Shown: positions 5,792 to 20,785, counted from the stretch's first letter. The stretch: DNA of 32,000 nt from an uncultured Alphaproteobacteria bacterium (GCA_934246625.1 CAKQHZ010000001.1:540001-572000); one strand, 5' to 3'. Notes: generated by a model from the sequence alone, not told the origin. A program made the numbers and translations.

Positions 5792-6565
5792 TTATCTTAT
5801 TTTTTGCATTAGTTGTTTGAAAAGAGTTTGTCTTTTATCTTCTTTGAGTTTTATTTTTTTTAATATTTCAGAATGAGAATTTGTTTTGTTTGTATATGAT
5901 ATTATGTTTTCAAGATTTTCAAGGTTGTATTCAAAGTGAACTCCTGAAATTATGACTTTGCCTTTGCCGTATGTTTTTTGTAGTATAGCAGGGAGCTTTT
6001 TGCCAGATTTTAGTTTATAGTTGGCAATGATTTGGCAATTTTTTTCAATTAAATCAAAAAATGGTCCGCCGTGGTAAAGTGCAGATGAATTTGTCTTAAT
6101 AACAGAATTTATATATTCTATATCTACAATAGTTGTTGCATCGATTGAGTGAGAAAATGGTTGTATGTCAAGTTCCTTATATAATGTACCTTTTGCACAA
6201 GAATTTATTAGGTCGAGTTTGTATTGGGCATTTATTTTTGAATTTGGAATGTCGTTTTCGAATTCGACTTTGTTGCAAGCATAGTATGCTCCTCCACATA
6301 TACCAAAATATATTCCGCCATTTTTTATATAATTTTGGATATTTTTGTTGCCTTTGATACCTATTTTTTCAAAGTATTTATTGGCAATGCCTCCTGGAAT
6401 AAAAAGTGCCAAAATATCATTAGTTAATTTTGTATTGTTGACTATTTCAGTTGAAGAAATTGTGTCTATTTCAATATTGTTTTTGAAATATGTTTCAAGA
6501 GCAGTTTTCAAAGGGTGGATATTAAATACACCAACATCGTTATAAATAAGTATTTTATTTTTCAT
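5792..6565 (-). CDS. stand-alone BPL_N-like / class I glutamine-amidotransferase-like domain protein
   Basis: The pattern ILIYNDVGV...ALFIPGG...NYIKNGGIYFGICGGAYYACNKVEFE resembles the N-terminal domain of eukaryote-type biotin-protein ligases (BPL_N) as I recall it. No ligase catalytic domain is attached. Confidence 0.55.
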   Translation of the reverse strand: MKNKILIYNDVGVFNIHPLKTALETYFKNNIEIDTISSTEIVNNTKLTNDILALFIPGGIANKYFEKIGIKGNKNIQNYIKNGGIYFGICGGAYYACNKVEFENDIPNSKINAQYKLDLINSCAKGTLYKELDIQPFSHSIDATTIVDIEYINSVIKTNSSALYHGGPFFDLIEKNCQIIANYKLKSGKKLPAILQKTYGKGKVIISGVHFEYNLENLENIISYTNKTNSHSEILKKIKLKEDKRQTLFKQLMQKIR

Positions 6566-6613: not shown

Positions 6614-6775
6614 TTATATTGCTAGAATAATAAAGAGAGAGGGTATGTATTTTAAAATAGCACCTATAAAATTATCCTGATAAAAAGTAATATTAAATTT
6701 ATTATCTATATAATACAATTTGTGTGTATATTCTCTAATTTTATCTACAGATTGTGATGTAGTATTTTCTACCAT
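6614..6775 (-). CDS. possible 53-aa ORF translationally coupled to the DUF45-like gene (below ORF-track cutoff)
   Basis: The ATG (6775-6773, minus) overlaps the upstream TAA by 1 nt (TAATG), the same junction used between hsdR and the DUF45-like gene. Translation is MVENTTSQSVDKIREYTHKLYYIDNKFNITFYQDNFIGAILKYIPSLFIILAI. The SD (GGGA) is weak. Confidence 0.3.
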   Translation of the reverse strand: MVENTTSQSVDKIREYTHKLYYIDNKFNITFYQDNFIGAILKYIPSLFIILAI

Positions 6776-7464
6776 TAATATTTTCCCAATAATTTATTTT
6801 CTAATTTTAGTTCAATATCTTGCCAATTAGGGATTTTAGATGATAATAATTTATAAAATTCTGTTGAATGAGTTTCATAATAATAATGGCAAAGTTCATG
6901 TGTAATAATATAATCAATTGCCTTTTTAGAGGCTTGTATTAAAGCTGGATTTAATATTATTTCATGTTTTTTTAAATAGCTTCCCCATCTTTTGTTTAAT
7001 TTTCTAACTTTTAATGTAGGTATAGGAAAATCAAATGTTTTCATTATTTCCTTTAATCTATTATTAAAGATTGTTATGGATTTTTTTAATAACCATTTAT
7101 TGAAAATGTGATTGATTTCATTTATTTTTTGAGGATGAGAAGAATAAAAAATAATTTTATTTCTTTCAACTTTTACTAAATTATTTAAACATGATTTTTG
7201 AATTATAAATTGATATTGTCTTCCAAGATACAAAATACTACTTCCAGATACAATATTTTTTTGTTTTACAGGATTAAACTTTGAAAAATATTCAATTTTA
7301 TCATTTATCCATTGTTTTTTCCTTTTAACAAAATCTTGAATTTTATCTTCGGTTGCATCTATTGGTGTTTTAATAACAACAGAACCATCAGGAAAAACTG
7401 TTGCAGAAATAGTTTTTCTCTGTTCTTTAATAATCTCTTTAATTCTTATATCAGATATAACCAT
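6775..7464 (-). CDS. DUF45 / YgjP-like (M48-type) zinc metallopeptidase
   Basis: HELCH (HExxH) is followed by a downstream His (ETHSTEFYKLL) near the C-terminus, and the size of about 230 aa fits the DUF45 (COG1451) layout. The start codon overlaps the hsdR stop (TAATG). Confidence 0.75.
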   Translation of the reverse strand: MVISDIRIKEIIKEQRKTISATVFPDGSVVIKTPIDATEDKIQDFVKRKKQWINDKIEYFSKFNPVKQKNIVSGSSILYLGRQYQFIIQKSCLNNLVKVERNKIIFYSSHPQKINEINHIFNKWLLKKSITIFNNRLKEIMKTFDFPIPTLKVRKLNKRWGSYLKKHEIILNPALIQASKKAIDYIITHELCHYYYETHSTEFYKLLSSKIPNWQDIELKLENKLLGKY

Positions 7465-10400
7465 TAAAACATCTCTTCATTTAATACAGCAATATCCCAA
7501 CATTTATTTGCTATCAACTCAACATCCGGTATAGTCAAATCAGATTCTATATCATCAAGTAAGAAATCTTCTATAGTTATAATAAATTTTCTTTTTATCG
7601 AAATATCATTATACCAATCTACTTTTTTCAATGATATTATTGTATCAACTATATGATTTATAATATTAGGAATATCATCATTTTCTATTTTATTTTCAAT
7701 TAACTCTTTGATATTTCTATAAATTGGATGAGTTGATTTTCTTTCTTTTAATTCATTTGGAATATCATTAGCTTCATAATTTTCAACACATTGTTGAATT
7801 TCTTTAACTTCATTAAATAGAGATGAAATATCTTCACGTTTTGCTTGTTCAAGATCGTGTAATAAAGCATTTAATCTTTCTGAAAGTTTACTATAAAAAA
7901 CTTCATCTCGTTTATATCTTTCACTAATAGTCTTTTTTGTCTGTGCAGCAATAGCAGCAGCCTTTGACCTATCAGATAGACCTTGCTTTTCGTCTTCAAT
8001 ATATTGATTAAACTCTCTCATATCAGACAAACTAATTTCTTTCGAAAGAATTTCAACTTCATTTGCAGTTACATATTTATCCAATAACTTATGTAATTGA
8101 TCCTTATATTTTGAAAAATCAACTTTTTCTGCTGCTGCCAATTGTGTAGTTTTTTTGATTTCAACGAATTTCTTCAAATCCATTTTATATCTATTTAACT
8201 TCTCATCATCAAACTTTTGTTGAAAATCGTATAAAGAGTAACAAGTTGCAAACATTCTAATAAACTGATTAACATTTGTATAAAATTTATTTTTTTTATC
8301 TTCATCTTTCATCAAAGCATGAACATAAGCATCAGTATTATTTGTGTCTTTAATATCCTTAAATTGCTCATGTATTTTTTGATAAATATTATCCAAAAGT
8401 TGTATTTGATCGTCAGTATTTAATAATGCTCCTTCTATATCCTCTGGATCATAATTACTAAATAATGTTAATGCATTTTTAAGATTTTTTGCATTTTTGG
8501 AATAATCTACAATCAATCCAGCAACCTTTGATTGCTTATTATTATCTCCATTATAAACTCTATTTACACGAGCAATTGCCTGTAAAAGATTATGATCTTT
8601 TAATTGTTTAGCCAAATAAAGAACAGTATCACAAGGAGCATCAAATCCAGTTAAAAGTTTATCAACAACAATTAAAATCTCACAACCATCAGGATTTTTC
8701 TTATAATCTTTAATAATGGTATCTTCTCGTTTTTCAAGAGATCCATATCTTCTTTTTTCCTCTTTTATAAAGTCGTTAACAACTTTTTTATGATTTGCAA
8801 GTTTATCTTCTTCTGTATCTGTCTTTTGTGTATCTGAAATGATAACTTCTGATTTTATTCCACCAAGCATATCCAATGCTTCCTTAAATAAAACAGCTGT
8901 ATATTTCGATGGAGCAACAAGCTGTCCCTTCAATCCAGTTCTCTGAAAATTATCTTTGAAATGCTTCCAAATATCAAAGGCAATCATTTCTACCCTAGCA
9001 GAAGTTTCCTCAAGCAATGACGCAGAAATAAACTTCTTTTCAAAATCCTTTTTTTGTTGTTCTGTAAAGTTCGATGAAATATTTTCATAAAATAAATCTA
9101 CCGTATTATTAACAGCTTGATCAACAAATCTTCCCTGATAAATAAGAGGAAGAATTGCACCATCCTCTTCAGCTTCTGATATAGTATATGCATCAATAAG
9201 TCCACCAAATTTCTTTTCTGTAATAGATTTATCCTTTGTCATCAAAGGTGTTCCTGTAAATGCAATTTGACAAGCACGAGGTAAAATTCTATTCATACTA
9301 TCATTTGCATCACCGCCTTGTGTTCTATGTGCTTCATCAATCAAAATAAAGATATTATCATCTTCATCCTTAAAAGAAGTAGTTGTTTCAAATTTATGAA
9401 CAAGCGTAGTGATAACATCAGTCGTTTTACTTTTAATTTTCTTAATCAAATCATCTTTTGATGTAGCTTGTTTTGCCTTAACTTTTATATTACAAGCATT
9501 AAAAGTATCATTAATTTGATCATCCAAATCAGTTCTATCAGTCACTACGATAACTCTTGGATTACTAATTGTTTCAATTAAATTCTTTACGAGCATAACC
9601 ATAGTTAAAGACTTACCACTTCCTTGTGTATGCCAAACAAGTCCACCTTTACGTTTTCCATTTTCTTCACGATTTTCAATTTTTTTCAAAATCTTTTTAA
9701 TAGCAAAATATTGCTGATATCTTGTAACTTTCTTTATGCCGTTATCATAAACGATAAAGTTTCTTACCAAATCCAAAAATCTTTCTGGTTCCAAAAGACT
9801 ATAAATTCCCCTGTCTTGTGGAGTTATATTTCCTTTTGGAGCTTGAACATAATTACTTCTTAACAAATCATTCGAAATCTTATCTAAATCTTCCTTACTT
9901 ATAGGATTATTTACAGACTTCAAAACCTTATCTTCAAAATCTTTACTAAAGTCTTTTTCCTTCCATACAGAATAAAAATCCCTTGGTGTTAGCATTGTTC
10001 CATATTTAATTTCGCTAACATTAGTTGCTATTAAAATTTGGGGATAAAGGAAGAATTTAGGAGTTTGATCTCCCTTTTGGTTTCTTATCATCTGAGTCAC
10101 AGCTTCATCAACAGGAACAGAACTTTTTTTATTTTCAATAACAGCAAAAGGTATTCCATTAACAAATAAAACTATATCAGGACGACGATTTTGCTCTTCT
10201 GATATTTCAAATTCAGGCACAACATGAAATGTATTTTTATCCCAATTTTTCCAATCAATAAACTTTAATTGTGGGGATGATTTTTTACCGTCAATAATCT
10301 CGGAAACAGCAACACCACCCAAAAGATTAGCATAAATATTCTTTGATACATTTACAACACCATCATCCATTTTTACCTTTTCCAACGAAATAATAGCATC

Positions 10401-10622
10401 CTTTATACTTTTATCAGAAATATTTGATCCGTTAATATTCCTTATTGCCTTAAATGCAATATCCCTAAGAATATATTGAGATTTACTGTCCCTATACTTA
10501 TCAATTTCATGTCTTCCAATATAGTTATAACCAAGATTTATAAGTTGAATTATTGCTGGAATTTGTGACGAGTTTGCTTCATCAAAGTTTGGTAAATAGT
10601 ATGGATCATTAATATTAGTCAT
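7464..10622 (-). CDS. hsdR: type I restriction enzyme, R (endonuclease/translocase) subunit
   Basis: 1052 aa. N-terminal PD-(D/E)xK-like segment RPDIVLFVNGIPFAVIENKK. SF2 helicase motif I is HTQGSGKSLTM and motif II is LIDEAHRTQ. Helicase C-terminal motifs LTGFDAP and QAIARVNR are present. It sits in an operon with hsdM and hsdS. Confidence 0.95.
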   Translation of the reverse strand: MTNINDPYYLPNFDEANSSQIPAIIQLINLGYNYIGRHEIDKYRDSKSQYILRDIAFKAIRNINGSNISDKSIKDAIISLEKVKMDDGVVNVSKNIYANLLGGVAVSEIIDGKKSSPQLKFIDWKNWDKNTFHVVPEFEISEEQNRRPDIVLFVNGIPFAVIENKKSSVPVDEAVTQMIRNQKGDQTPKFFLYPQILIATNVSEIKYGTMLTPRDFYSVWKEKDFSKDFEDKVLKSVNNPISKEDLDKISNDLLRSNYVQAPKGNITPQDRGIYSLLEPERFLDLVRNFIVYDNGIKKVTRYQQYFAIKKILKKIENREENGKRKGGLVWHTQGSGKSLTMVMLVKNLIETISNPRVIVVTDRTDLDDQINDTFNACNIKVKAKQATSKDDLIKKIKSKTTDVITTLVHKFETTTSFKDEDDNIFILIDEAHRTQGGDANDSMNRILPRACQIAFTGTPLMTKDKSITEKKFGGLIDAYTISEAEEDGAILPLIYQGRFVDQAVNNTVDLFYENISSNFTEQQKKDFEKKFISASLLEETSARVEMIAFDIWKHFKDNFQRTGLKGQLVAPSKYTAVLFKEALDMLGGIKSEVIISDTQKTDTEEDKLANHKKVVNDFIKEEKRRYGSLEKREDTIIKDYKKNPDGCEILIVVDKLLTGFDAPCDTVLYLAKQLKDHNLLQAIARVNRVYNGDNNKQSKVAGLIVDYSKNAKNLKNALTLFSNYDPEDIEGALLNTDDQIQLLDNIYQKIHEQFKDIKDTNNTDAYVHALMKDEDKKNKFYTNVNQFIRMFATCYSLYDFQQKFDDEKLNRYKMDLKKFVEIKKTTQLAAAEKVDFSKYKDQLHKLLDKYVTANEVEILSKEISLSDMREFNQYIEDEKQGLSDRSKAAAIAAQTKKTISERYKRDEVFYSKLSERLNALLHDLEQAKREDISSLFNEVKEIQQCVENYEANDIPNELKERKSTHPIYRNIKELIENKIENDDIPNIINHIVDTIISLKKVDWYNDISIKRKFIITIEDFLLDDIESDLTIPDVELIANKCWDIAVLNEEMF

Positions 10623-10624
10623 TT

Positions 10625-10972
10625 TTATTTATCCTTATTTTTTAATATATATTGTTGTAAATCATCCAAAAAACTATCAGGTAAAATAAACCACGTCGGA
10701 TATCCACGAGTATTGGGATAACCGGTACAAGTTTTATCTTTATTATTAGCATGCGTTTCGTATTCTGAAGAAGCAATATTCCAACGCATAGCTAAATGAA
10801 TTCCATTATCATCTTCTATTTTAGCAATAATATAATTTTTTCCATCATAAACCGTTCCAGAAAATTTATACCTCATCGGAGAAATACTTTTTTCATAATC
10901 ATAACAATTATAATATTTCCCTTTATATTCTATTTCTATTTTTTTCTTTTTTTCTAAAATTTTACTTACCAT
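10625..10972 (-). CDS. hypothetical protein (115 aa) between hsdS and hsdR
   Basis: SD AGGAG overlaps the hsdS stop, 8 nt before the ATG. Its stop lies 2 nt before the hsdR ATG. No recognisable motif and no hydrophobic segment. Confidence 0.65.
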   Translation of the reverse strand: MVSKILEKKKKIEIEYKGKYYNCYDYEKSISPMRYKFSGTVYDGKNYIIAKIEDDNGIHLAMRWNIASSEYETHANNKDKTCTGYPNTRGYPTWFILPDSFLDDLQQYILKNKDK

Positions 10973-10981
10973 ATCTATCTC

Positions 10982-12151
10982 CTATTTATTCACTTTTACT
11001 CTTATCTTTCCGGTAAGAAGTTGTTGCATAAGGCCTTTCTTTTGTGTTTTAAGAGCTTCTAATTTTTGATTAAGTAAGTTAATTTCATCATCTGCCGTTG
11101 ATAAAACATCCGCAATAGCTTGTTGTTCAGATATGTCGGATGGGATAAATAGTTTAATTTTTTTAATATCATTACTTCCAATATTTGGTTGAGCTCCACC
11201 ATAAGACATTCTAAGAATTTTATTATTAAAACGCATTAAATATTGATTGATGAAGCATTGATTACTTTTTTTAGCCCTTATAATTCCTACACGTTGGTTA
11301 AGAAGCATAGGAGTAACAGTTTTATTTATTCCCATTTTTCCTGTAGTTGCACCAGACATGGCGATTAATAAATCTTGTTGTTTAATACAATATTTTTGAT
11401 ATTTTTGCAAAGATGATGTGTCTAAAAAAACAGTATCTTTATCTAAAGATAATTTATCATCTTCTATATTAGATATACGAATTAAGGGAATACCATTTTC
11501 CTTAAAATCATTACTATCAAAAGAGTAACCTAAAATAAATTCTGCAATCTCACCTAACTTTACTTCTTTCCAAGGTTGTGTGAAGCCGGATAGGCGGGTT
11601 TTGTCGGTCAAGAGTTTTTGCATCAGGCCTTTTTTGAGGAGCTTTTTCTGCTCTATCAGATCAGACACCTTTTCAATCGCCTCATCCCAACAACTCAATA
11701 TCTCCGCAATCTTCTCCTGTTCAGCAAGTGGGGGAACAACTACTTTATACCAAGAAACTTGAGGAACTGTCAGTTGAGGAACACCTGTATTTTCATTAAA
11801 AAATTTAATACGACTACAAGAATAACTCATAAATTTTGTATTTATATTATTTTTTGGAATAGCTGTAATTAAACGTACTATAGGAGTGAACTTTCCCTCA
11901 CGATAAAAGACTTTTCCTATATCTCCTCTACCTGTAATAGTAATGCATTCATTTTTTATTTTATACTTTGAACTGTATCCATATAAACCTTTGTTTGTAA
12001 GAGCATTAGCATATATAGGATACGGATGTAAATCATCTTTTACATCAGAAAAACAATCCTTATCAACATCACCTCCTGCTGAAAAGGAAAATATTTCTCC
12101 AAGTTTTTTAATATCCCATCCTTTTGGTATATTTATGTTATTTGTTGCCAT
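10982..12151 (-). CDS. hsdS: type I restriction-modification specificity subunit (two target-recognition domains)
   Basis: 389 aa with two variable halves, each followed by a conserved helical region: PPLAEQEKIAEIL...KKGLMQKLLT and ISEQQAIADVL...KKGLMQQLLTGK. This is the classical HsdS architecture. Confidence 0.9.
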   Translation of the reverse strand: MATNNINIPKGWDIKKLGEIFSFSAGGDVDKDCFSDVKDDLHPYPIYANALTNKGLYGYSSKYKIKNECITITGRGDIGKVFYREGKFTPIVRLITAIPKNNINTKFMSYSCSRIKFFNENTGVPQLTVPQVSWYKVVVPPLAEQEKIAEILSCWDEAIEKVSDLIEQKKLLKKGLMQKLLTDKTRLSGFTQPWKEVKLGEIAEFILGYSFDSNDFKENGIPLIRISNIEDDKLSLDKDTVFLDTSSLQKYQKYCIKQQDLLIAMSGATTGKMGINKTVTPMLLNQRVGIIRAKKSNQCFINQYLMRFNNKILRMSYGGAQPNIGSNDIKKIKLFIPSDISEQQAIADVLSTADDEINLLNQKLEALKTQKKGLMQQLLTGKIRVKVNK

Positions 12152-13106
12152 TTGTTTTACTCTTATCCATATAATTAAATAATTCTAATTCTTTAATTTC
12201 TTTATCGACAATATCTATTTTTATTTGTTTTGTTTCTTTTTCTGTTGTTTTATAGATAGATAATGCTGTAATTTTTTTCTTTTTTAAGACATTATAATCA
12301 AAATTTAAAATTCCAGAAATTGATAGGTTAGCATAAACAAAATCTCCTTGAGTAAAAGATATTTCTTTATTTTGCATAAGATGTTTAAAGCCATCATCTT
12401 CCACAGAAAAATAAATTATATCTCCATCAATTAAAACTGGAATATCTCCTCTCTTTATAGTACTTCCTTGATATATTCCAACCCATAATCTTTTACTATT
12501 ATCGACTAATACTGGAGAAACTAATTCAATAATAACTTTATCAAAATTTTCTGAATATATTTTTTCTTCAGCTACATAATCAAAATTTTTGAATTGTGAA
12601 CGTTGAATCTTTGTATCAGACAAAATAGTATTATCTTTTTTGACTATTAAATTTTCAGATTTTAAACTTTCATCTTTATTTAATGCTTGATATTTTTTTG
12701 ATAATGCTTTTTTTATGTCAACATCTTCACAAACCTCATGTAATATACCTTGAAAGTTAGCTGTATCACAATCAACTCCTAAATTTTTAGCCTTCATTGC
12801 TAAATCTAATTTTTTATTTGCTTCATCGTATTTGTTTGAAAATAATATTGGCCATAATGCTACTAATAACGAAATCCAAGGAAGTATTTTTTCGCTATTA
12901 AATTTTATTTTTATAGTATCTTGGTAACACCCATTTTTAGGAATTGTAAGTTTTATTTCATAATAATCTTCAGATATTCCCATTTTATCTAAAACCGAAT
13001 TTAAAACTTTTATTGTAGCTTCAGACGCTATATTTCTAGCTTCTGGAACAATTTCGGCATTTAATACTTCATAATGAGATTCAAAAAATAAAACATTATC
13101 TTCCAT
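12138..13106 (-). CDS. hypothetical protein (322 aa) with one internal hydrophobic helix, embedded between hsdM and hsdS
   Basis: SD GGAG lies 9 nt upstream. The 3' end overlaps the hsdS start by 14 nt. Hydrophobic segment ILPWISLLVALWPILF at about aa 74-89. The C-terminal half looks beta-rich. I found no Walker A, HExxH, HEPN Rx4-6H or nuclease motif. Confidence 0.7.
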   Translation of the reverse strand: MEDNVLFFESHYEVLNAEIVPEARNIASEATIKVLNSVLDKMGISEDYYEIKLTIPKNGCYQDTIKIKFNSEKILPWISLLVALWPILFSNKYDEANKKLDLAMKAKNLGVDCDTANFQGILHEVCEDVDIKKALSKKYQALNKDESLKSENLIVKKDNTILSDTKIQRSQFKNFDYVAEEKIYSENFDKVIIELVSPVLVDNSKRLWVGIYQGSTIKRGDIPVLIDGDIIYFSVEDDGFKHLMQNKEISFTQGDFVYANLSISGILNFDYNVLKKKKITALSIYKTTEKETKQIKIDIVDKEIKELELFNYMDKSKTNGNK

Positions 13107-13124
13107 TTAATAGTCTCCATAATA

Positions 13125-13865
13125 TTAATTACTCTTATCACTAGTTTTATCTATATATTTAGCATCAATAACTTTTCCATTTTCTTTATTTTTTGGATTT
13201 TCTTTTTTATTAACAATGTTTATAATATTGTTAATAACAAGCATATTTGTTTTGTTATTTAATTTTTCTTTATTTATTAGATGCATTAAATGATCTATTT
13301 TATATTTTGCAGGCAAAAATTTACAAAAATAAAATATAAATTCCTTTATTTTGGAATATATTTTTTCAATAATGTTTTTATCATCATTAAATACTTTACG
13401 CAAAATTAACTTATCTAATTTTATAGATACATATCTTAATGTATTATAACTTTCGATGAGTTTATTTTGTAACATTCGCTTATATGGACTATTTTTTTCA
13501 CACTTTGAAATAATTTCATATTGATCTAAAATATATTGAGAATAGAAAAAAATTCGTGTAAATAATAGTGATGCCTTAGGATTTAAAAGTTGAAATTCTA
13601 AAAAATCTTTTTCTTTTGTCCATTTTAATATAAAATTAAACGCTTGAGATATATTTTTATTTATTACTTCAACTCTTTTACATTTTTCTAGTCCTGTGAT
13701 TTTATTATGTATAAAAAGAGAGATAAAATTTAACTGTTTATTGTAAAAAACATCCTGACGTTGTTTTTCCATTATTTTCATTTGTCTATACATCCAAAAT
13801 AATGTAACTAGACCAACAAATAATGTTATAACATGTTGATAATTTGCTAAATATATTTTTTCCAT
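13125..13865 (-). CDS. hypothetical N-terminally membrane-anchored protein (246 aa), embedded between hsdM and hsdS
   Basis: Strong SD AAGGAG lies upstream. N-terminal hydrophobic helix HVITLFVGLVTLFWMY. The rest looks helical and Lys/Asn-rich. No catalytic motif recognised. Confidence 0.7.
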   Translation of the reverse strand: MEKIYLANYQHVITLFVGLVTLFWMYRQMKIMEKQRQDVFYNKQLNFISLFIHNKITGLEKCKRVEVINKNISQAFNFILKWTKEKDFLEFQLLNPKASLLFTRIFFYSQYILDQYEIISKCEKNSPYKRMLQNKLIESYNTLRYVSIKLDKLILRKVFNDDKNIIEKIYSKIKEFIFYFCKFLPAKYKIDHLMHLINKEKLNNKTNMLVINNIINIVNKKENPKNKENGKVIDAKYIDKTSDKSN

Positions 13866-13889
13866 TTTAATACTCCTTTTATTATTTAA

Positions 13890-15398
13890 CTATTCTTTCA
13901 ATTCCAATTCTTTCAAATATTTATTCATTTTTTCTTCTATTTGTTTTATTTCTTCCTCAACTTTTTTTATTTCTGCACGAGTGTTTGGAATATCAACAAT
14001 TTCTTCCTCTTCATAGGTATCAACATAACGAGGAATATTAAGATTATATTCATTTTCCTCAATTTCTTTTATTGTTGCGATATGAGAGTATTTTTCAATT
14101 TCCTTACGATTTTTATATGTATCAACAATCTTTGCAATATGTTCATCAGAAAGGTTATTTTGATTTTTCCCTGGAACAAATTCCCTTGATGCATCAATGA
14201 ATAAAATATCTTTACGATTTTCATTTGCACCACCTTTTTCCCTTGATCTATCAAACACAAGGATTGCAACAGGAATACCAGTTGTTTGGAAAAGTCCAGC
14301 GGGAAGCCCAATAACTGCATCCAAAATATTTTCTTCAATAAATGCTTTTCTGATACGACCTTCGGCAGAACCACGGAACAAAACTCCGTGAGGAACAACT
14401 ACTGCAACACGACCTTCTTTTGCTTTTGCTGTTTCAATCATATGAGTAATAAATGCATAATCTCCTTTACTTGCAGGAGGCATACCTCTATGAAAACGAT
14501 TGTATTTGTCGTTATTGACTTTTCCTTCATCAGCCCATTTATCCAAAGAAAATGGTGGATTTGCAACAATTACATCAAACTTCATCAAACCATCATCATC
14601 AGTAAGTTTTGGTTCATTTATTGTATCACCCCACTCAATACGAGCTGAATCTTGTTTATGTAAAAACATATTCATACGAGCAAGATTGTATGTAGTTCCT
14701 GTTTTTTCCTGACCATACAATGCATAATTAGTTGAGCCGCTTTCACGAACTTCATTTCCCGCAATAATAAGAAGACCTGCAGAACCACAAGTTGGATCAC
14801 AAATCTTATCTCCTTCTTTTGGATTAGCTAATTTTGCAACAAGTTTACATATTTGTTTTGGGGTAAAGAATTCTCCCGCTTTCTTTCCTGCTTCCGAACC
14901 AAACTTTTCAATCATATACATGTATGAGTTACCAAGAATATCATCTCCAACTTCTGTTAAATCAATTTTATTAAAATCATTTAACAAATCTCTTATCATT
15001 TTGGATCGTTGAGATGTTGGTCCAAGTATCTTCTCATCATTAAAATCAACTGTAAAAATACCTTTTAATGCTTCATTTGCATCTTCAATCTTTCTAAGTG
15101 CAATATTTAATAATTCCCCAATATTACTTTCCGATTGATGAATATAAATATCTTTAAAAGAAGTTCCTTTTGGCATAATAAATCTTGAATTTTGAAGACG
15201 CATTTCAATACGAGCTTCATCATCACCATATTTCTCTTTTAACTTTTTGTATTCGACTTCATGCAAATCACTCATATATTTATAAAACAAAAGTGAAAGT
15301 ACATAATCCTTAAATACACCACTATCAACAGTTCCTCTTGAAGAGTCTGCAGCTGACCATAATGTTTTATTTAATTCGTCTTGAGTTATACTAGCCAT
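13890..15398 (-). CDS. hsdM: type I restriction-modification N6-adenine DNA methyltransferase subunit
   Basis: N-terminal HsdM_N-like segment LWSAADSSRG...LLFYKYMSD. AdoMet motif I is DPTCGSAGLL and catalytic motif IV is NPPFS. SD AAGGAG lies upstream. Confidence 0.95.
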   Translation of the reverse strand: MASITQDELNKTLWSAADSSRGTVDSGVFKDYVLSLLFYKYMSDLHEVEYKKLKEKYGDDEARIEMRLQNSRFIMPKGTSFKDIYIHQSESNIGELLNIALRKIEDANEALKGIFTVDFNDEKILGPTSQRSKMIRDLLNDFNKIDLTEVGDDILGNSYMYMIEKFGSEAGKKAGEFFTPKQICKLVAKLANPKEGDKICDPTCGSAGLLIIAGNEVRESGSTNYALYGQEKTGTTYNLARMNMFLHKQDSARIEWGDTINEPKLTDDDGLMKFDVIVANPPFSLDKWADEGKVNNDKYNRFHRGMPPASKGDYAFITHMIETAKAKEGRVAVVVPHGVLFRGSAEGRIRKAFIEENILDAVIGLPAGLFQTTGIPVAILVFDRSREKGGANENRKDILFIDASREFVPGKNQNNLSDEHIAKIVDTYKNRKEIEKYSHIATIKEIEENEYNLNIPRYVDTYEEEEIVDIPNTRAEIKKVEEEIKQIEEKMNKYLKELELKE

Positions 15399-15954
15399 TT
15401 ATTACTCCTTTTATAGTTTTATTGATTCTTTGAGTTTCAAGATTTAACAACTCTTTTAATAAAGTCGTTTTCCTCTCATATAATTTTACAATCTCCGAAA
15501 GTTTTTTTTGTTTTTCCAATGAAATCAATGGAATTTCAACTTGCTTTAAGGTTTTTAGTGTTATTGCAGGTATAGTCATAACTTCCTGCAAAGAAAATAA
15601 TTGTTTTTGACCTTCCGAGGAATTCAAATATGCAGAAATATATTCCGGTAAAATATTACTATCATCTTTTACTGAAAGAATAAAAATACCACCTGATGCA
15701 ACTGTGTTTTTGGAAGGATTAAACACGCAAGATTTAAACACCCCTCTATTTGTTATAAGTATACTGTTTTTATTAAGACAATGTTTTCTCCTAACTGTTT
15801 CATCAGAAACCTTAACCAAATCAGAAAAATCACCACTTAGAATATTTTTGGGCTGAATTACAGAAATAACACCATTATGTTCAGGAAGTATCTTACCACG
15901 AAAAGCATACCCTAAACAAATTTCACAAATAGAATCTAACATTACCACATTCAT
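15391..15954 (-). CDS. hsdS: half-size type I specificity subunit (single target-recognition domain plus one conserved helix)
   Basis: HsdS-like pattern: LDSICEICLGYAFRGK, ITNRGVF, LPEYISAYLNSSEGQKQL, then IPLISLEKQKKLSEIVKLYERK. There is only one TRD. I place the start at ATG 15954 because the ORF-track TTG at 15990 is itself the -35 hexamer of the promoter. ATG 15942 is an alternative start. It overlaps the hsdM start by 8 nt. Confidence 0.7.
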   Translation of the reverse strand: MNVVMLDSICEICLGYAFRGKILPEHNGVISVIQPKNILSGDFSDLVKVSDETVRRKHCLNKNSILITNRGVFKSCVFNPSKNTVASGGIFILSVKDDSNILPEYISAYLNSSEGQKQLFSLQEVMTIPAITLKTLKQVEIPLISLEKQKKLSEIVKLYERKTTLLKELLNLETQRINKTIKGVING

Positions 15955-15961
15955 ACCTATA

Positions 15962-15990
15962 AATATATAGTATAAAACGAAATCTGTCAA
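15962..15990 (-). promoter_or_regulatory. near-consensus sigma70-type promoter of the type I R-M operon
   Basis: Minus strand: TTGACA (15990-15985), 17 nt spacer, TATATT (15967-15962). The first in-frame ATG begins 7 nt after the -10 hexamer. Confidence 0.55.
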
Positions 15991-16251
15991 GAAAAATTTG
16001 CAATATTTTAATATTGTTATACTTTCTTTCTGCTTTAAGGTATTTCAAAAAATATTGGTATCTTTGTAAATGTTCTAAAATAATAAGTTTCAAGAAAAAT
16101 AATGCTTTTCATATTATATCCCTAATTTTAGTAAAGGGGTGGGGATTTTGAATAATTGTTTTTAATGGTGGATTGATTTTTTTAATCAGTAAAAATCCTT
16201 CAAAAATAAATTTTAAAGTTTGGATATTCAATAAAATCAAGGAGTTAATAT

Positions 16252-16325
16252 TGGAGCGGGTGAAGGGAATCGAACCCTCACGGCCAGCTTGGAAGGCTGG
16301 AACTCTACCATTGAGCTACACCCGC
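16252..16325 (-). tRNA. tRNA-Gly, anticodon UCC, CCA encoded
   Basis: The reverse complement is GCGGGTGTAGCTCAATGGTAGAGTTCCAGCCTTCCAAGCTGGCCGTGAGGGTTCGATTCCCTTCACCCGCTCCA. It folds as a cloverleaf: 7-bp acceptor GCGGGTG/CACCCGC, anticodon stem CCAGC/GCTGG with loop CTTCCAA, and a T-arm with GTTCGATTC. Confidence 0.93.
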
Positions 16326-17648: not shown

Positions 17649-18434
17649 ATGGATAATAAAAATAACTTAAATTTTAGTGAATTTCAATCAAGGGAAAGAG
17701 CTATCGCAGTTGGAAAAAGGTATCTTAACCTTTTTCATCAACTTCATGTGATTCAAGCTGGATTAACAGTGTTGAATAAGGATTTTATTGCTTTGCCTGA
17801 TGATGTTATTGCTATATTGCCAGAGCTTGCTGGTGGTGCAAAGTTCAGACAACATATTTTAAATTTGAAATCTGGTATTACTCCGATTGATAAAATTGAT
17901 GCAGATTTGCTTCCTTTTGGTGAAGAAGTTTTTGATGATAAGGATTTGTATATAAAATATACTCAATATAATACAAATTCTAAAGCTAAAAAAACGGAAA
18001 ATAAAGTTTCTGATAAAAAAGAGGTTGTCTCTGAAGTTGTCAAAGAAGAAGTTGCAGAAAGTCTTGATGATGAAAATGCAAAGGTGATTTTTGAACTTCT
18101 TAGAAAATTTCAAAATAATCCAAAGGATTTAGAAGCATTTAAGTCAAAGGAAGAAGTTCGTGATTTTGGACCAGAATGGAAATCAAAAATTTCAGAATTG
18201 ATTGAAAAATCAAATGAAAAGGATAAGTCCAATTTGAAAAAGATTTTTGATGGTCTTTGTATTTTTGATTATGCTTTGAATATTTGGCAAGAATGTGTTG
18301 CATTGATTAAAAATCCAAAATCAAAGAGTAAAGAAGATGTTGCATCAAAACTTGACGAATATAAAAAGTATTTGAATATGTTTGGAGATGCGGGAAATCG
18401 TTTGTATGAAAAAGTCGAATCTTTAACTAAATAA
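17649..18434 (+). CDS. hypothetical acidic protein (261 aa); C-terminal domain paralogous to the N-terminal domain of the next gene
   Basis: SD AGGGG lies 3 nt upstream of the ATG. No signal peptide. Central Lys/Glu-rich linker. The C-terminal FGPEWK...FDYALNIW...EYKKYLNMFGDAGNRLYEK aligns with aa 42-123 of the 18445 gene. Confidence 0.65.
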   Translation: MDNKNNLNFSEFQSRERAIAVGKRYLNLFHQLHVIQAGLTVLNKDFIALPDDVIAILPELAGGAKFRQHILNLKSGITPIDKIDADLLPFGEEVFDDKDLYIKYTQYNTNSKAKKTENKVSDKKEVVSEVVKEEVAESLDDENAKVIFELLRKFQNNPKDLEAFKSKEEVRDFGPEWKSKISELIEKSNEKDKSNLKKIFDGLCIFDYALNIWQECVALIKNPKSKSKEDVASKLDEYKKYLNMFGDAGNRLYEKVESLTK

Positions 18435-18444
18435 GGAATAAAAG

Positions 18445-19443
18445 ATGAGTTTTTTTCAAAAATTCTTTCAGAAAAAAATAACTATCCAAGATGTTTTATT
18501 ATCTTTGGAAAATTTTTCAAATGATGTAAAGTCATTGAATAATGTTTCACAAATTTCATCTGAATTTTTTGGGGTGAATTGGAAATTTAATTTGGAAATG
18601 TATATCAATACTATACCAAAAGATGATAAGGAAAAATATTTATCCTTGTTTTATAATGTATTGACTTTTGATAAGGCTTTGGGGCTTTGGACTTCGGCAC
18701 AGCAGGTTTTAAAGGGTGCGAAAACTTTGTCTGCTGATATGATAAAGGATATTGGTGAGTATGAGGAGTATTTACCAAAATTTGGTGTTGAAGGAGTAAG
18801 GCTTCTTGAAAAATTTAAGGAAAAATTTAATTTCCCTAATGTTATAACTCCAAAAGATGAAAATGTTGTTGAAGATACAAAAAAGGTTGAAGATGTCGTT
18901 GATGTAAACGAAAACGAATCCGAACCTGAGACTGAAAAAGTTGAAGTGCAGGAAGATGTTAAGACTACTCCTGTGTCCTCAAAAATTTTGCATAAAGTTT
19001 CAGTAAAAGATTTGGAAGAGGGTGTATTTTGTAAATTCCCACGTGAAGAAAAAACTTTTGAAGAAGATAAAGTTGAACCAGTTGTTAATAATAGTATGGG
19101 TGATGATTGGGAATTGAAAAATTTTAGAATGGTTCATAATTTTGTTTCACAGGTTCGTGAGGTAATGTCTGCTATTTCTTTGTTTAAAAATGCTCAATCA
19201 TTGGAAGAATATCCTTACTATGGTTTTGTTATTGACACTATTGATTATTTGATTGCTCAGGGAAACAAGATTTTATCAATAAAATCCAATGAAGAAATAG
19301 AAAAGTATTTTCCCGCTGGGGCAAAGGAAGTTGAAGATATAATTTCATTTTATACTAAACAAAAACAAGATGAAGTTGTTATGCCAGTTGAAATGAAATC
19401 TGATGAAAAAGATAAAAAAGAATATGAAATTATAGAAGATTAA
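18445..19443 (+). CDS. hypothetical acidic protein (332 aa); N-terminal domain paralogous to the preceding gene
   Basis: 10-nt gap after the previous gene, containing AGGAA. FGVNWK...FDKALGLW...EYEEYLPKFGVEGVRLLEK matches the previous protein. Asp/Glu/Val-rich linker at aa 135-215. No signal peptide. Confidence 0.65.
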   Translation: MSFFQKFFQKKITIQDVLLSLENFSNDVKSLNNVSQISSEFFGVNWKFNLEMYINTIPKDDKEKYLSLFYNVLTFDKALGLWTSAQQVLKGAKTLSADMIKDIGEYEEYLPKFGVEGVRLLEKFKEKFNFPNVITPKDENVVEDTKKVEDVVDVNENESEPETEKVEVQEDVKTTPVSSKILHKVSVKDLEEGVFCKFPREEKTFEEDKVEPVVNNSMGDDWELKNFRMVHNFVSQVREVMSAISLFKNAQSLEEYPYYGFVIDTIDYLIAQGNKILSIKSNEEIEKYFPAGAKEVEDIISFYTKQKQDEVVMPVEMKSDEKDKKEYEIIED

Positions 19444-19498
19444 ATTTTTGCTGGTATTTATTGAAAATACAATATAAAATAAATCCGTGTGAGGTAAA

Positions 19499-20785
19499 AT
19501 GAAGTTAAATAAATTTTTATATATAGCAAGTTTTTTATTTATAATTTCTTGTTCAGATGATTATAACAATGGTATGGTTATGCAAACACCTTATGTTGTA
19601 GAAAATTCTTCTTATGATATAAAGGTTAATGATTATGTTCCTGTGTTTGATAAAACTCCATCTCGAACTTTGGAAAATGTAGAAAAATTTAATTTGGAAA
19701 CTCCTCTTCGTTGTGAAGTCGATTGGGATTCTCAATCTATTATTTCAACACAACCTTTTGCAAGACGTGATTTCTTCTTGGAACGTGTTGATAAGGGTGA
19801 TGCCTTGCCAGTATTAAAAGTTGATAACCTTTCTTTTGAAAATAAACCTGTAGATGAAGTTTTAAGAACTTTGCTTAAAAATACAGGGATTCAGGTTTAT
19901 GCAACCGATTTATATTATAAAAAGATTTCACAAAGTGAATTAAGTGGTGATTTGACAAAGGTTGTTGATTTAATTGCTTCACTTGGAAATGTTTATTATT
20001 CTTATGATAACAGAATTAAACGAATCACATTACGAAAATTTGCAAAATGGAATTTGCATGTGCCACTTTCTTCTGATGTAATACTTGCAATGGAAGATGC
20101 TTTGCGTGGTGCGGATATTGATGATATTGTTATTGATTGGGAAGACAAGGTTATTATATTTCAGGGTGATGTTGTTGTTGAAGACAAGGTTAGAAATATA
20201 GTTAATAAGTTTGAACGTGAGAATTATTTGCTTGCCTTTGATATTGATGTTTATCGTGTTTATCCAAAAACTTTGAATGGTTCAATTATTTGGATGAATA
20301 TTTTAGAGGCGTTTAATCCTAGGTCAATAAAGTTATCTCAAAAGGGTTTGATTGGTAGAGCTTTGGTTGTATCATCAAACTTTAATAGAGATAGTTTGAA
20401 CGAATTCCTTATTCCACAGGCTAATGTTGTGCTTGTATCAAGTGGAACTTTTATTACTCCTGACAGATGGCAAGGTAGATTTGATATTGGTAGATGTGGC
20501 CGTGAAGTAAGATTGGAAACTGATTTGAATATTTTGACTCAGGCTCAATTTTATCCAAATGATAAAAATGTTGGAAAACTTGATTCAACTATTGTGCTTA
20601 GAACTTCAAATGGTGATATTGCAAAATATACTGTGCCAAGTAGGTTAGGTGATAATATCCTTATTATTGGTATTCCAACACAATATTTTGTTGATGGAAA
20701 GGAAACTATTATTCCTCCTAATGCTGAGTTAGTTGTGCTTGTAAGTCCAAGAATTATTAAAATTGTTCATCCTCTTGAAAAATAG
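19499..20785 (+). CDS. secretin-like outer-membrane lipoprotein (428 aa; one N0-type domain plus a secretin-like C-terminal domain)
   Basis: Lipobox FIISC, with Cys at residue 18. N0-like segment LSFENKPVDEVLRTLLKNTGIQVYATD. The C-terminal region follows the secretin pattern as I recall it: FDIDVYRV..., ...VVLVSSGTFITPDRWQGRFDIG, IIGIPTQYF. It ends in ELVVLVSPRII, the typical secretin terminal motif. SD GAGG lies upstream. Confidence 0.55.
   Translation: MKLNKFLYIASFLFIISCSDDYNNGMVMQTPYVVENSSYDIKVNDYVPVFDKTPSRTLENVEKFNLETPLRCEVDWDSQSIISTQPFARRDFFLERVDKGDALPVLKVDNLSFENKPVDEVLRTLLKNTGIQVYATDLYYKKISQSELSGDLTKVVDLIASLGNVYYSYDNRIKRITLRKFAKWNLHVPLSSDVILAMEDALRGADIDDIVIDWEDKVIIFQGDVVVEDKVRNIVNKFERENYLLAFDIDVYRVYPKTLNGSIIWMNILEAFNPRSIKLSQKGLIGRALVVSSNFNRDSLNEFLIPQANVVLVSSGTFITPDRWQGRFDIGRCGREVRLETDLNILTQAQFYPNDKNVGKLDSTIVLRTSNGDIAKYTVPSRLGDNILIIGIPTQYFVDGKETIIPPNAELVVLVSPRIIKIVHPLEK

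Follow-up and report, generated by a model that had tools for sequence, protein, structure and literature searches.

The PrrC anticodon nuclease of EcoprrI is accessory cargo that is co-transcribed with hsdMSR, and it acts as a second-line defence held in check by the type I restriction-modification (R-M) complex. BREX, DISARM and type I R-M loci contain embedded genes, from which 145 "phage defence candidates" (PDC) were derived by "guilt-by-embedding" and added to PADLOC (Payne et al., bioRxiv 10.1101/2024.01.29.577857). In clamp partners, the bacterial beta-sliding-clamp-binding motif QL(S/D)LF is typically located at the C-terminus, and the SocB toxin uses such a motif to bind DnaN and stop replication elongation (PMC9690074). 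Here we analysed a type I R-M operon of an uncultured Alphaproteobacteria bacterium in which two open reading frames (ORFs), ORF-A and ORF-B, lie between hsdM and hsdS. The window is the whole analysed stretch of 32,000 nucleotides (GCA_934246625.1 CAKQHZ010000001.1:540001-572000). All coordinates follow its numbering, and the whole operon is on the minus strand. Judged from its profile matches, ORF-B is a divergent new member of the already catalogued candidate defence family PDC-S42.

The locus can be compared with each of these systems. As in the definition of the PDC candidates, ORF-B matches the family models and is co-oriented inside a type I R-M operon. It differs in being divergent and in being accompanied by ORF-A, which is outside the family definition. 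ORF-B resembles PrrC in being an accessory gene within a type I R-M operon. Unlike PrrC and RloC, it showed no ABC ATPase or Walker A motif and no nuclease or HEPN motif in the motif scan and has no PADLOC or Pfam match to them, and it shows no sequence or fold relationship to PrrC. Like SocB, the ORF-B family has a short C-terminal QL[S/D]LF-type peptide on a flexible basic tail. However, there is no homology with SocB, the motif of ORF-B in the window is degenerate (ELELF), and DnaN binding of the family is predicted from sequence.

Profile matches place ORF-B in the candidate defence family PDC-S42

The genes at the center of the analysis are the following.
13890..15398, minus strand: hsdM, type I methyltransferase subunit of 502 amino acids (Pfam N6_Mtase 1.1e-104, HsdM_N 2e-21)
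13125..13865, minus strand: ORF-A, 246 amino acids, lineage-restricted orphan
12138..13106, minus strand: ORF-B, 322 amino acids, divergent PADLOC PDC-S42 member by profile match
10982..12151, minus strand: hsdS, specificity subunit of 389 amino acids with two target-recognition domains (Methylase_S 4.5e-49, two stretches)

Profile matches were taken as significant at E <= 1e-3 or at the family's own cut-off, and the PDC-S42 match was judged by E-value and coverage. ORF-B matched the PADLOC PDC-S42 model PDLC05016 with E=4e-18 (63.9 bits), residues 24-293 being aligned with profile positions 29-294 of 320 (83% of the profile). The second PDC-S42 model, PDLC05017, was matched at 3e-9. All of the aligned relatives (47/47) also matched PDC-S42, the best of them at 2.4e-111. 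The original prediction had called the cassette a candidate undescribed defence module, and it argued that accessory genes inside type I R-M operons are typically defence effectors. By this same argument, a gene that lies inside type I R-M and matches PDC-S42 is already catalogued, and the claim of novelty falls for ORF-B.

ORF-B gave no significant match in Pfam, PHROGs or NCBIfam, and the same is true of ORF-A. The statement that the two proteins do not look like the usual R-M hitchhikers is therefore borne out, and a defence role is still the leading hypothesis. A HMMER search of 1.84 billion representative proteins with the concatenated A+B query gave about 25 relatives of ORF-B, the full-length ones having about 316-349 amino acids, and scans of genome and metagenome collections added many further relatives. 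The identity of ORF-B to most relatives was about 20-28%, and it reached 36% for the nearest one outside its own clade. Family members are about 320 amino acids long, and domain fusions were absent among the members seen.

NCBIfam contains a related family, NF053583 (LAPAL_fam). ORF-B aligned with it at congruent positions (residues 226-279 versus model 227-284), but with 21.8 bits it was under the 60-bit cut-off. NF053583 was matched by 41 of the 47 relatives. Only P0028 (64.2 bits) and P0034 (63.0 bits) exceeded 60 bits, with nearly the full model aligned, and L053_320, the paralogue from another strain of the same species, reached 55.3. From these alignments, PDC-S42 and LAPAL_fam are judged to be one overlapping superfamily. 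Unlike what the NCBIfam name implies, no phage or structural-module context was found for the members examined, and the neighbours that could be identified were R-M, Abi-type or housekeeping genes.

The comparison also exposes a clash between two public annotations of one superfamily, which is a defence candidate in PADLOC and a "LAPAL motif-containing putative phage structural protein" in NCBIfam.

ORF-A and ORF-B are real, embedded genes

The two co-oriented ORFs were found between hsdM and hsdS with the layout originally described. The gap is 24 nucleotides between hsdM and ORF-A and 18 nucleotides between ORF-A and ORF-B, and ORF-B overlaps hsdS by 14 nucleotides. Shine-Dalgarno sequences precede ORF-A (AAGGAG) and ORF-B (GGAG). 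No minus-strand terminator-like site was found inside the operon, and promoter-like sites were not above chance (80 versus 70 +/- 8.6 in shuffles).

ORF-A and ORF-B are long ORFs within DNA of 20-24% guanine-cytosine (GC) content. Contig L001 carries diverged copies of both (72% amino acid identity for ORF-A and 79% for ORF-B) in unchanged gene order. The ratio of nonsynonymous to synonymous substitution rates (dN/dS) against the L001 copy was 0.24 for ORF-A and 0.29 for ORF-B, and purifying selection acts on both. Because of these three lines of evidence, ORF-A and ORF-B are regarded as real genes. It was confirmed that the two genes are embedded in the type I R-M operon as accessory cargo and share its orientation.

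Different cargo occupies the same slot on related backbones

The whole R-M operon lies in a strain-variable island.
6632..16085, no strand assigned: strain-variable island with the whole R-M operon, between a BPL_N gene (5792-6565) and tRNA-Gly(TCC) (16252-16325)

The flanks of the island are 99.4% and 97.7% identical to those of L053, a strain of the same species whose hotspot is occupied by a different type I R-M system. The HsdM of L053 is 28% identical to that of the window. Its hsdM-hsdS slot holds a B-family gene and no ORF-A, and this gene matches the family hidden Markov model (HMM) at 8e-33, with 28% identity to ORF-B over 156 residues. L058 has the same backbone as L053 (nucleotide identity 95.6% for hsdM and 97.6% for hsdR), but a PIN_12 gene occupies its hsdM-hsdS slot. 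Since the backbones of L053 and L058 are alike and the contents of the slot are different, ORF-B is exchangeable cargo, which is neither an obligatory R-M subunit nor obligatorily paired with ORF-A.

The PIN_12 gene of L058 resembles ORF-B in its slot and in its size (322 amino acids), and a PIN_12 gene is also found near the B homologue in L006. Its product, however, is unrelated to ORF-B and is predicted to have a PIN nuclease fold. The hotspot of this one species is thus a natural experiment, in which two type I R-M systems each have a family member in the hsdM-hsdS slot and a sister allele has a PIN nuclease gene.

Nine alternative contents of the island were seen in other strains. Among them are two further type I R-M families whose embedded genes differ, as well as an integrase-bearing element and clusters of NERD/resolvase/CsgG and PIF1/Bro-N genes. 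The island is bounded by no tRNA-derived direct repeat longer than 11 nucleotides. A conserved ORF of 51-57 amino acids was also observed in the hsdM-hsdS slot of L053 (6769-6942) and L058 (7735-7890), with 86% nucleotide identity; it follows the B-family gene in L053 and precedes the PIN_12 gene in L058.

Predicted structure and conserved residues of ORF-B

AlphaFold prediction of ORF-B from the single sequence was unusable (predicted local distance difference test, pLDDT, 33.8), and the model used was built from a 29-sequence alignment (pLDDT 80.4; predicted template-modelling score, pTM, 0.62). It contains an N-terminal beta-alpha-beta-beta domain (residues 1-70), a hydrophobic helix (75-88), helices (95-144), a beta-rich domain (148-287) and a low-confidence C-terminal tail. 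The strands across residues 148-287 agree with the beta-rich C-terminal half that had been described from the sequence. The family architecture is predicted to begin with an N-terminal alpha/beta domain, which is followed by a hydrophobic helix and a helical linker; a beta-rich C-terminal domain comes next, and a basic linker joins it to a short conserved peptide at the C-terminus.
12840..12887, minus strand: ORF-B residues 74-89, ILPWISLLVALWPILF, hydrophobic helix whose position is kept across the family (19-residue Kyte-Doolittle 1.44; model pLDDT about 65-69)
12507..12533, minus strand: IIELVSPVL, the most conserved motif of the family (E194, S197, P198, V199; column conservation 85-96%)

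The conserved residues of the family are E9, R24, R169, F172, E194, S197-P198-V199, W208, G210, Y212, F233, D237, F240, K241 and F251, and they form no recognised catalytic motif. IIELVSPVL probably corresponds to the "LAPAL" motif of NF053583. In a motif scan, Walker A, HExxH and HEPN Rx4-6H were absent from both ORF-A and ORF-B, in agreement with the earlier reading of the sequence. The reported absence of PD-(D/E)xK stood for ORF-A only, as a loose regular expression had one match in ORF-B, at residue 163.

Two nuclease assignments were tried for ORF-B and rejected. The sole PD-(D/E)xK pattern match falls on residues that the family does not conserve. A GIY-YIG nuclease was considered on account of a conserved W-x-GIY; the YIG partner motif is absent, and no fold match was obtained.

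The family tail resembles a clamp-binding motif

The family alignment ends in a conserved Q-L-x-L-F. The last 20 residues were searched for the patterns Q-x-x-[LMI]-[FL], QLxLx[LF] or Qxxx[LM]F. A clamp-like motif was present in 50 of 64 distinct tails, with its end 0-8 residues short of the C-terminus; as the tails share ancestry, such counts overstate independence. As controls, only 8/957 (0.8%) of the other 20-residue windows of the same proteins contained the motif, and shuffled tails gave 3.8 +/- 1.9 (maximum 11). The consensus is [ED][DN]-Q-[LSQ]-[ST]-L-F outside Bacteroidales and QLTLDLF in Bacteroidales. Exact QLPLF, QLDLF and QLSLF copies exist, for example in P0007, P0034 and a protein of L031, respectively. 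In the model the tail is of low confidence and is preceded by a basic linker. By its residues, then, the family tail resembles a beta-clamp-binding motif, and in the window it takes the following form.
12177..12191, minus strand: ORF-B residues 306-310, ELELF, degenerate family tail motif with E in place of Q

This resemblance gives a PDC-S42 candidate a concrete mechanistic handle that is cheap to test. No paper joining the phrases "clamp-binding motif" and "anti-phage" was found in the literature searched.

A tentative model for the cassette

We tentatively favour the following explanation over the alternatives, while giving it somewhat less than even chances. The cassette would be co-transcribed with hsdMSR and would serve as a second-line, abortive-infection-type defence rather than as an R-M subunit. 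ORF-B would be cytoplasmic and would act on DNA replication, docking on the beta sliding clamp (DnaN) by the C-terminal QL[S/D]LF-like tail. Docked ORF-B may either block replication when triggered, as SocB does, or monitor the clamp for phage interference. By analogy with PrrC, the obvious candidate trigger would be an R-M complex that has failed or been inhibited. ORF-A would be a membrane-anchored partner or regulator in this clade only.

A wider claim can be built on the tail sequence, and we consider it unlikely. PDC-S42/LAPAL would form a novel group of R-M-embedded immunity proteins acting via the host beta clamp, in which the QL[S/D]LF tail on DnaN arrests replication or guards the clamp against phage hijacking, and this gut clade would have recruited the membrane-anchored ORF-A. 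If the clamp link is true, it would tie R-M-embedded cargo to the replisome. If it is false, the locus is ordinary guilt-by-embedding cargo plus an orphan gene.

Several observations weigh against the clamp-docking model, in addition to the relatedness of the tails. The ELELF of ORF-B is not only degenerate but also located 12 residues from the C-terminus. If the hydrophobic helix of ORF-B were transmembrane, the charge distribution would place the C-terminal domain outside the cell, in conflict with the cytoplasm-type clamp-binding-like tail of the family. A truly transmembrane helix is hard to reconcile with clamp docking. The role given to ORF-A is one that we purely infer. PDC-S42 itself was not mentioned in the literature searched.

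Fold comparison, which also counts against the model, gave no informative match. Foldseek against the Protein Data Bank (PDB) gave nothing at E <= 1e-3 for the ORF-B model, the weak matches being to oligonucleotide-binding (OB) fold/single-stranded DNA-binding (SSB) and ferredoxin-like proteins. In a viral structure library, the model matched uncharacterised phage proteins best (1e-9 to 6e-7), and the TM-scores were low.

The second-best viral fold match led to DUF6575, a domain known from one validated E. coli defence system (PMC9519451). This lead was dropped, as no family member matches Pfam DUF6575 or the PADLOC PD-T4/T7/lambda models. LE1-0037 of Leptospira phage LE1 (381 amino acids), which is probably the protein behind the DUF6575 fold match, has no sequence similarity to the family HMM.

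Genomic context and a possible non-defence role

Relatives of ORF-B were repeatedly found as single-gene cargo embedded in type I R-M operons, and co-oriented with them, at about 16 distinct loci (L007, L010, L012, L015, L062, L065-L069, L071, L075 and L053; with genetic code 25, L014, L072, L074, L077 and L080). In Patescibacteria (candidate phyla radiation), the ORF-B homologue is usually between hsdS and hsdR. With M, S and R for the hsd genes and B for the homologue, the order is M-S-B-R in L010, M-381-S-Schlafen/AlbA_2-B-R in L012 and S-Abi_C-B in L007. Some of the R-M-embedded relatives adjoin Abi_C or Schlafen/AlbA_2 genes.

In the Patescibacteria-type loci L006, L014, L072, L074, L077 and L080, intact B-family, hsdS and hsdR genes are obtained only with genetic code 25, in which UGA encodes glycine; under code 11 they appear fragmented.

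The family has a second kind of site, which counts against the model above. About 30 Parabacteroides/Bacteroidales species have the gene at a syntenic site that is free of R-M genes in its vicinity, and its neighbours there encode a DUF2148 protein, formate-tetrahydrofolate ligase, a Na+/H+ antiporter and a TonB receptor. Within Parabacteroides, the DUF2148 (ferredoxin-domain) gene ends 0-11 nucleotides ahead of the B-family start in most of 14 species; in 5 others the B-family gene comes after that for formate-tetrahydrofolate ligase (loci looked at: L019, L026, L029, L032, L035-L037, L039, L041, L043, L045, L046 and L048). This Parabacteroides site is a conserved chromosomal context and not an island, and such a housekeeping context fits a cellular DNA-metabolism role as well as defence. 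Homologues lying mostly outside defence contexts had been named in the original prediction as evidence against it. Such evidence was found in part, as both kinds of context occur, the R-M loci on the one side and the housekeeping neighbourhoods on the other.

The strongest alternative is that ORF-B has no defence role. It would be a DNA-metabolism or phage-derived protein carried as passive or selfish R-M cargo (a "genomic sink"), and ORF-A would be a fast-evolving orphan without a linked role. The housekeeping context in Parabacteroides speaks for it, as do the best fold matches to uncharacterised phage proteins and the candidate-only status of PDC-S42. So do the NCBIfam "putative phage structural protein" label, with its 41 matching relatives and the two above the cut-off, and phrog_3243, which is matched by 23/47 relatives. 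However, tblastn of five diverse family members against 50,697 phage genomes gave no match, and an IMG/VR scan revealed no family relative. ORF-B itself had no tblastn match among plasmids and phages. No phage structural gene was recognised beside any family locus, where selected neighbours were profile-scanned. In these searches, no support was found for the "phage structural" label. Moreover, the gene was inserted recurrently and independently in two R-M systems of one species and was exchanged allelically with a PIN_12 gene, which argues for selected cargo, and the purifying selection on both genes also stands against a passive role. We consider a non-defence role unlikely, about on a par with the wider claim above.

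ORF-A and the membrane question

The original prediction took ORF-A and ORF-B as a dedicated membrane-anchored effector/sensor pair, which would cause membrane disruption or depolarisation in abortive infection. We consider this quite improbable. Each part of it, the pairing and the membrane, was examined.

No significant match to ORF-A was found in Pfam, NCBIfam, PADLOC or PHROGs, among PDB sequences or in phage genomes. Its best sub-threshold match was to Pfam TPR_TTI1_2nd (E=0.0077; 16.3 bits versus a cut-off of 27). A match to an NCBIfam glucose-6-phosphate isomerase model was discarded as spurious (17.8 bits versus a 492-bit cut-off). Among the 1.84 billion representatives, homologues of ORF-A formed a single cluster, P0005 (72% identity). 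After its N-terminal hydrophobic stretch, the protein is rich in lysine and asparagine.

ORF-A and ORF-B are always together in this clade, which favours a pair. In contrast, the ORF-B relatives of every other lineage examined, including the same-species strain L053, have no ORF-A; they are alone in L010, L053, L004 and the Bacteroidales loci. Upstream neighbours of other ORF-B relatives showed no profile similarity to ORF-A (hhalign probability <=0.8%), and the accessory genes in the operons of these relatives are almost all singletons. Because the family occurs without ORF-A, the two genes are not a conserved pair. ORF-A is a lineage-specific orphan that accompanies ORF-B only in this clade, and elsewhere ORF-B relatives have other upstream neighbours or none.

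A strongly hydrophobic protein (19-residue Kyte-Doolittle 1.6-3.1) was observed directly upstream of the ORF-B homologue in L064 (3841-4752), L077 (6646-7968), L072 (4013-4651), L005 (2636-3196) and L014 (7460-7966). These proteins are mostly unrelated to each other and to ORF-A. They give a weak hint of a recurring membrane partner, in favour of the membrane pair, and are too few to separate from chance.

Hydrophobicity was measured by the Kyte-Doolittle scale, with 1.6 over 19 residues as the transmembrane threshold. The segment of ORF-A is the following.
13788..13832, minus strand: ORF-A residues 12-26, VITLFVGLVTLFWMY, candidate membrane anchor near the N-terminus, after which comes a basic stretch (R27, K30, K34, R36)

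Its value was 2.13 over 15 residues (2.48 in P0005) and 1.41 over 19 residues (1.63 in P0005), the hydrophobic character of the stretch being conserved. As had been claimed, a hydrophobic segment exists in each of the two proteins. However, both segments are short (about 15-16 residues) and under 1.6 over 19 residues. The position of the ORF-B segment is kept in the family, where it is transmembrane-like (>=1.6) in 21/47 relatives and reaches 1.96 in L053_320, again in favour of the membrane pair. Against this, in P0002, the closest ORF-B relative (79% identical), the segment is not the hydrophobicity maximum (1.17), and in the Bacteroidales clade it contains polar or charged residues. Since the segments are short, sub-threshold and lost in P0002, membrane association is plausible for ORF-A and uncertain for ORF-B. 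From its sequence, ORF-A may plausibly consist of a short membrane anchor and a cytoplasmic body. With marginal hydrophobicity, and with a charge distribution that, for a membrane-spanning ORF-B helix, would be at odds with the cytoplasm-type tail of the family, the description of the cassette as membrane-anchored and membrane-targeting could not be upheld.

Equally improbable is that ORF-B is a type I R-M accessory or regulator, for example one restraining or coupling restriction at forks by reading clamps on new host DNA: it is strictly co-oriented and tightly coupled in the R-M loci, overlaps hsdS in the window and could be put on replicating DNA by the clamp-like tail, but the near-identical backbone of L058 has a PIN_12 gene instead, the position varies (M-B-S in the window versus S-B-R in Patescibacteria), and many family members have no R-M system nearby.

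Other features of the window

The other genes of the operon and island are the following.
15391..15990, minus strand: half-size hsdS with one target-recognition domain (Methylase_S 6e-14; 185-amino-acid gene call on L049)
10625..10972, minus strand: orphan of 115 amino acids between hsdS and hsdR, second cargo slot
7464..10622, minus strand: hsdR, restriction subunit of 1052 amino acids (same gene on L002 and L049: Pfam HSDR_N, ResIII, SWI2_SNF2, T1R_D3-like)
6775..7464, minus strand: YgjP-like metallopeptidase gene (Pfam 2.8e-46)

The operon starts with the half-size hsdS, which shares 8 nucleotides with hsdM. In PADLOC, this gene matched mad5 from the MADS system best (1.3e-23). A promoter-like site (TTGACA-17-TATATT), the strongest on the minus strand, is at 15990-15962 and is only suggestive.

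The 115-residue orphan had no significant family match in Pfam, PADLOC, NCBIfam or PHROGs. Elsewhere, the hsdS-hsdR slot holds an unrelated 121-amino-acid gene (L001) or a 190-amino-acid gene (L058). As these contents differ, this slot also takes variable cargo. The YgjP-like gene abuts the hsdR stop codon and is part of the island, not of the flank, and on other contigs an ORF of 53 amino acids follows it.

The organism of the window is from the human gut and has about 30% GC and diderm-type genes. Three conserved ORFs of 261, 332 and 428 amino acids, which match no Pfam family at curated thresholds, are located at 17649-20785 on the plus strand. This set lies upstream of a MacB/FtsX-type ABC transporter and was present in all strains examined.

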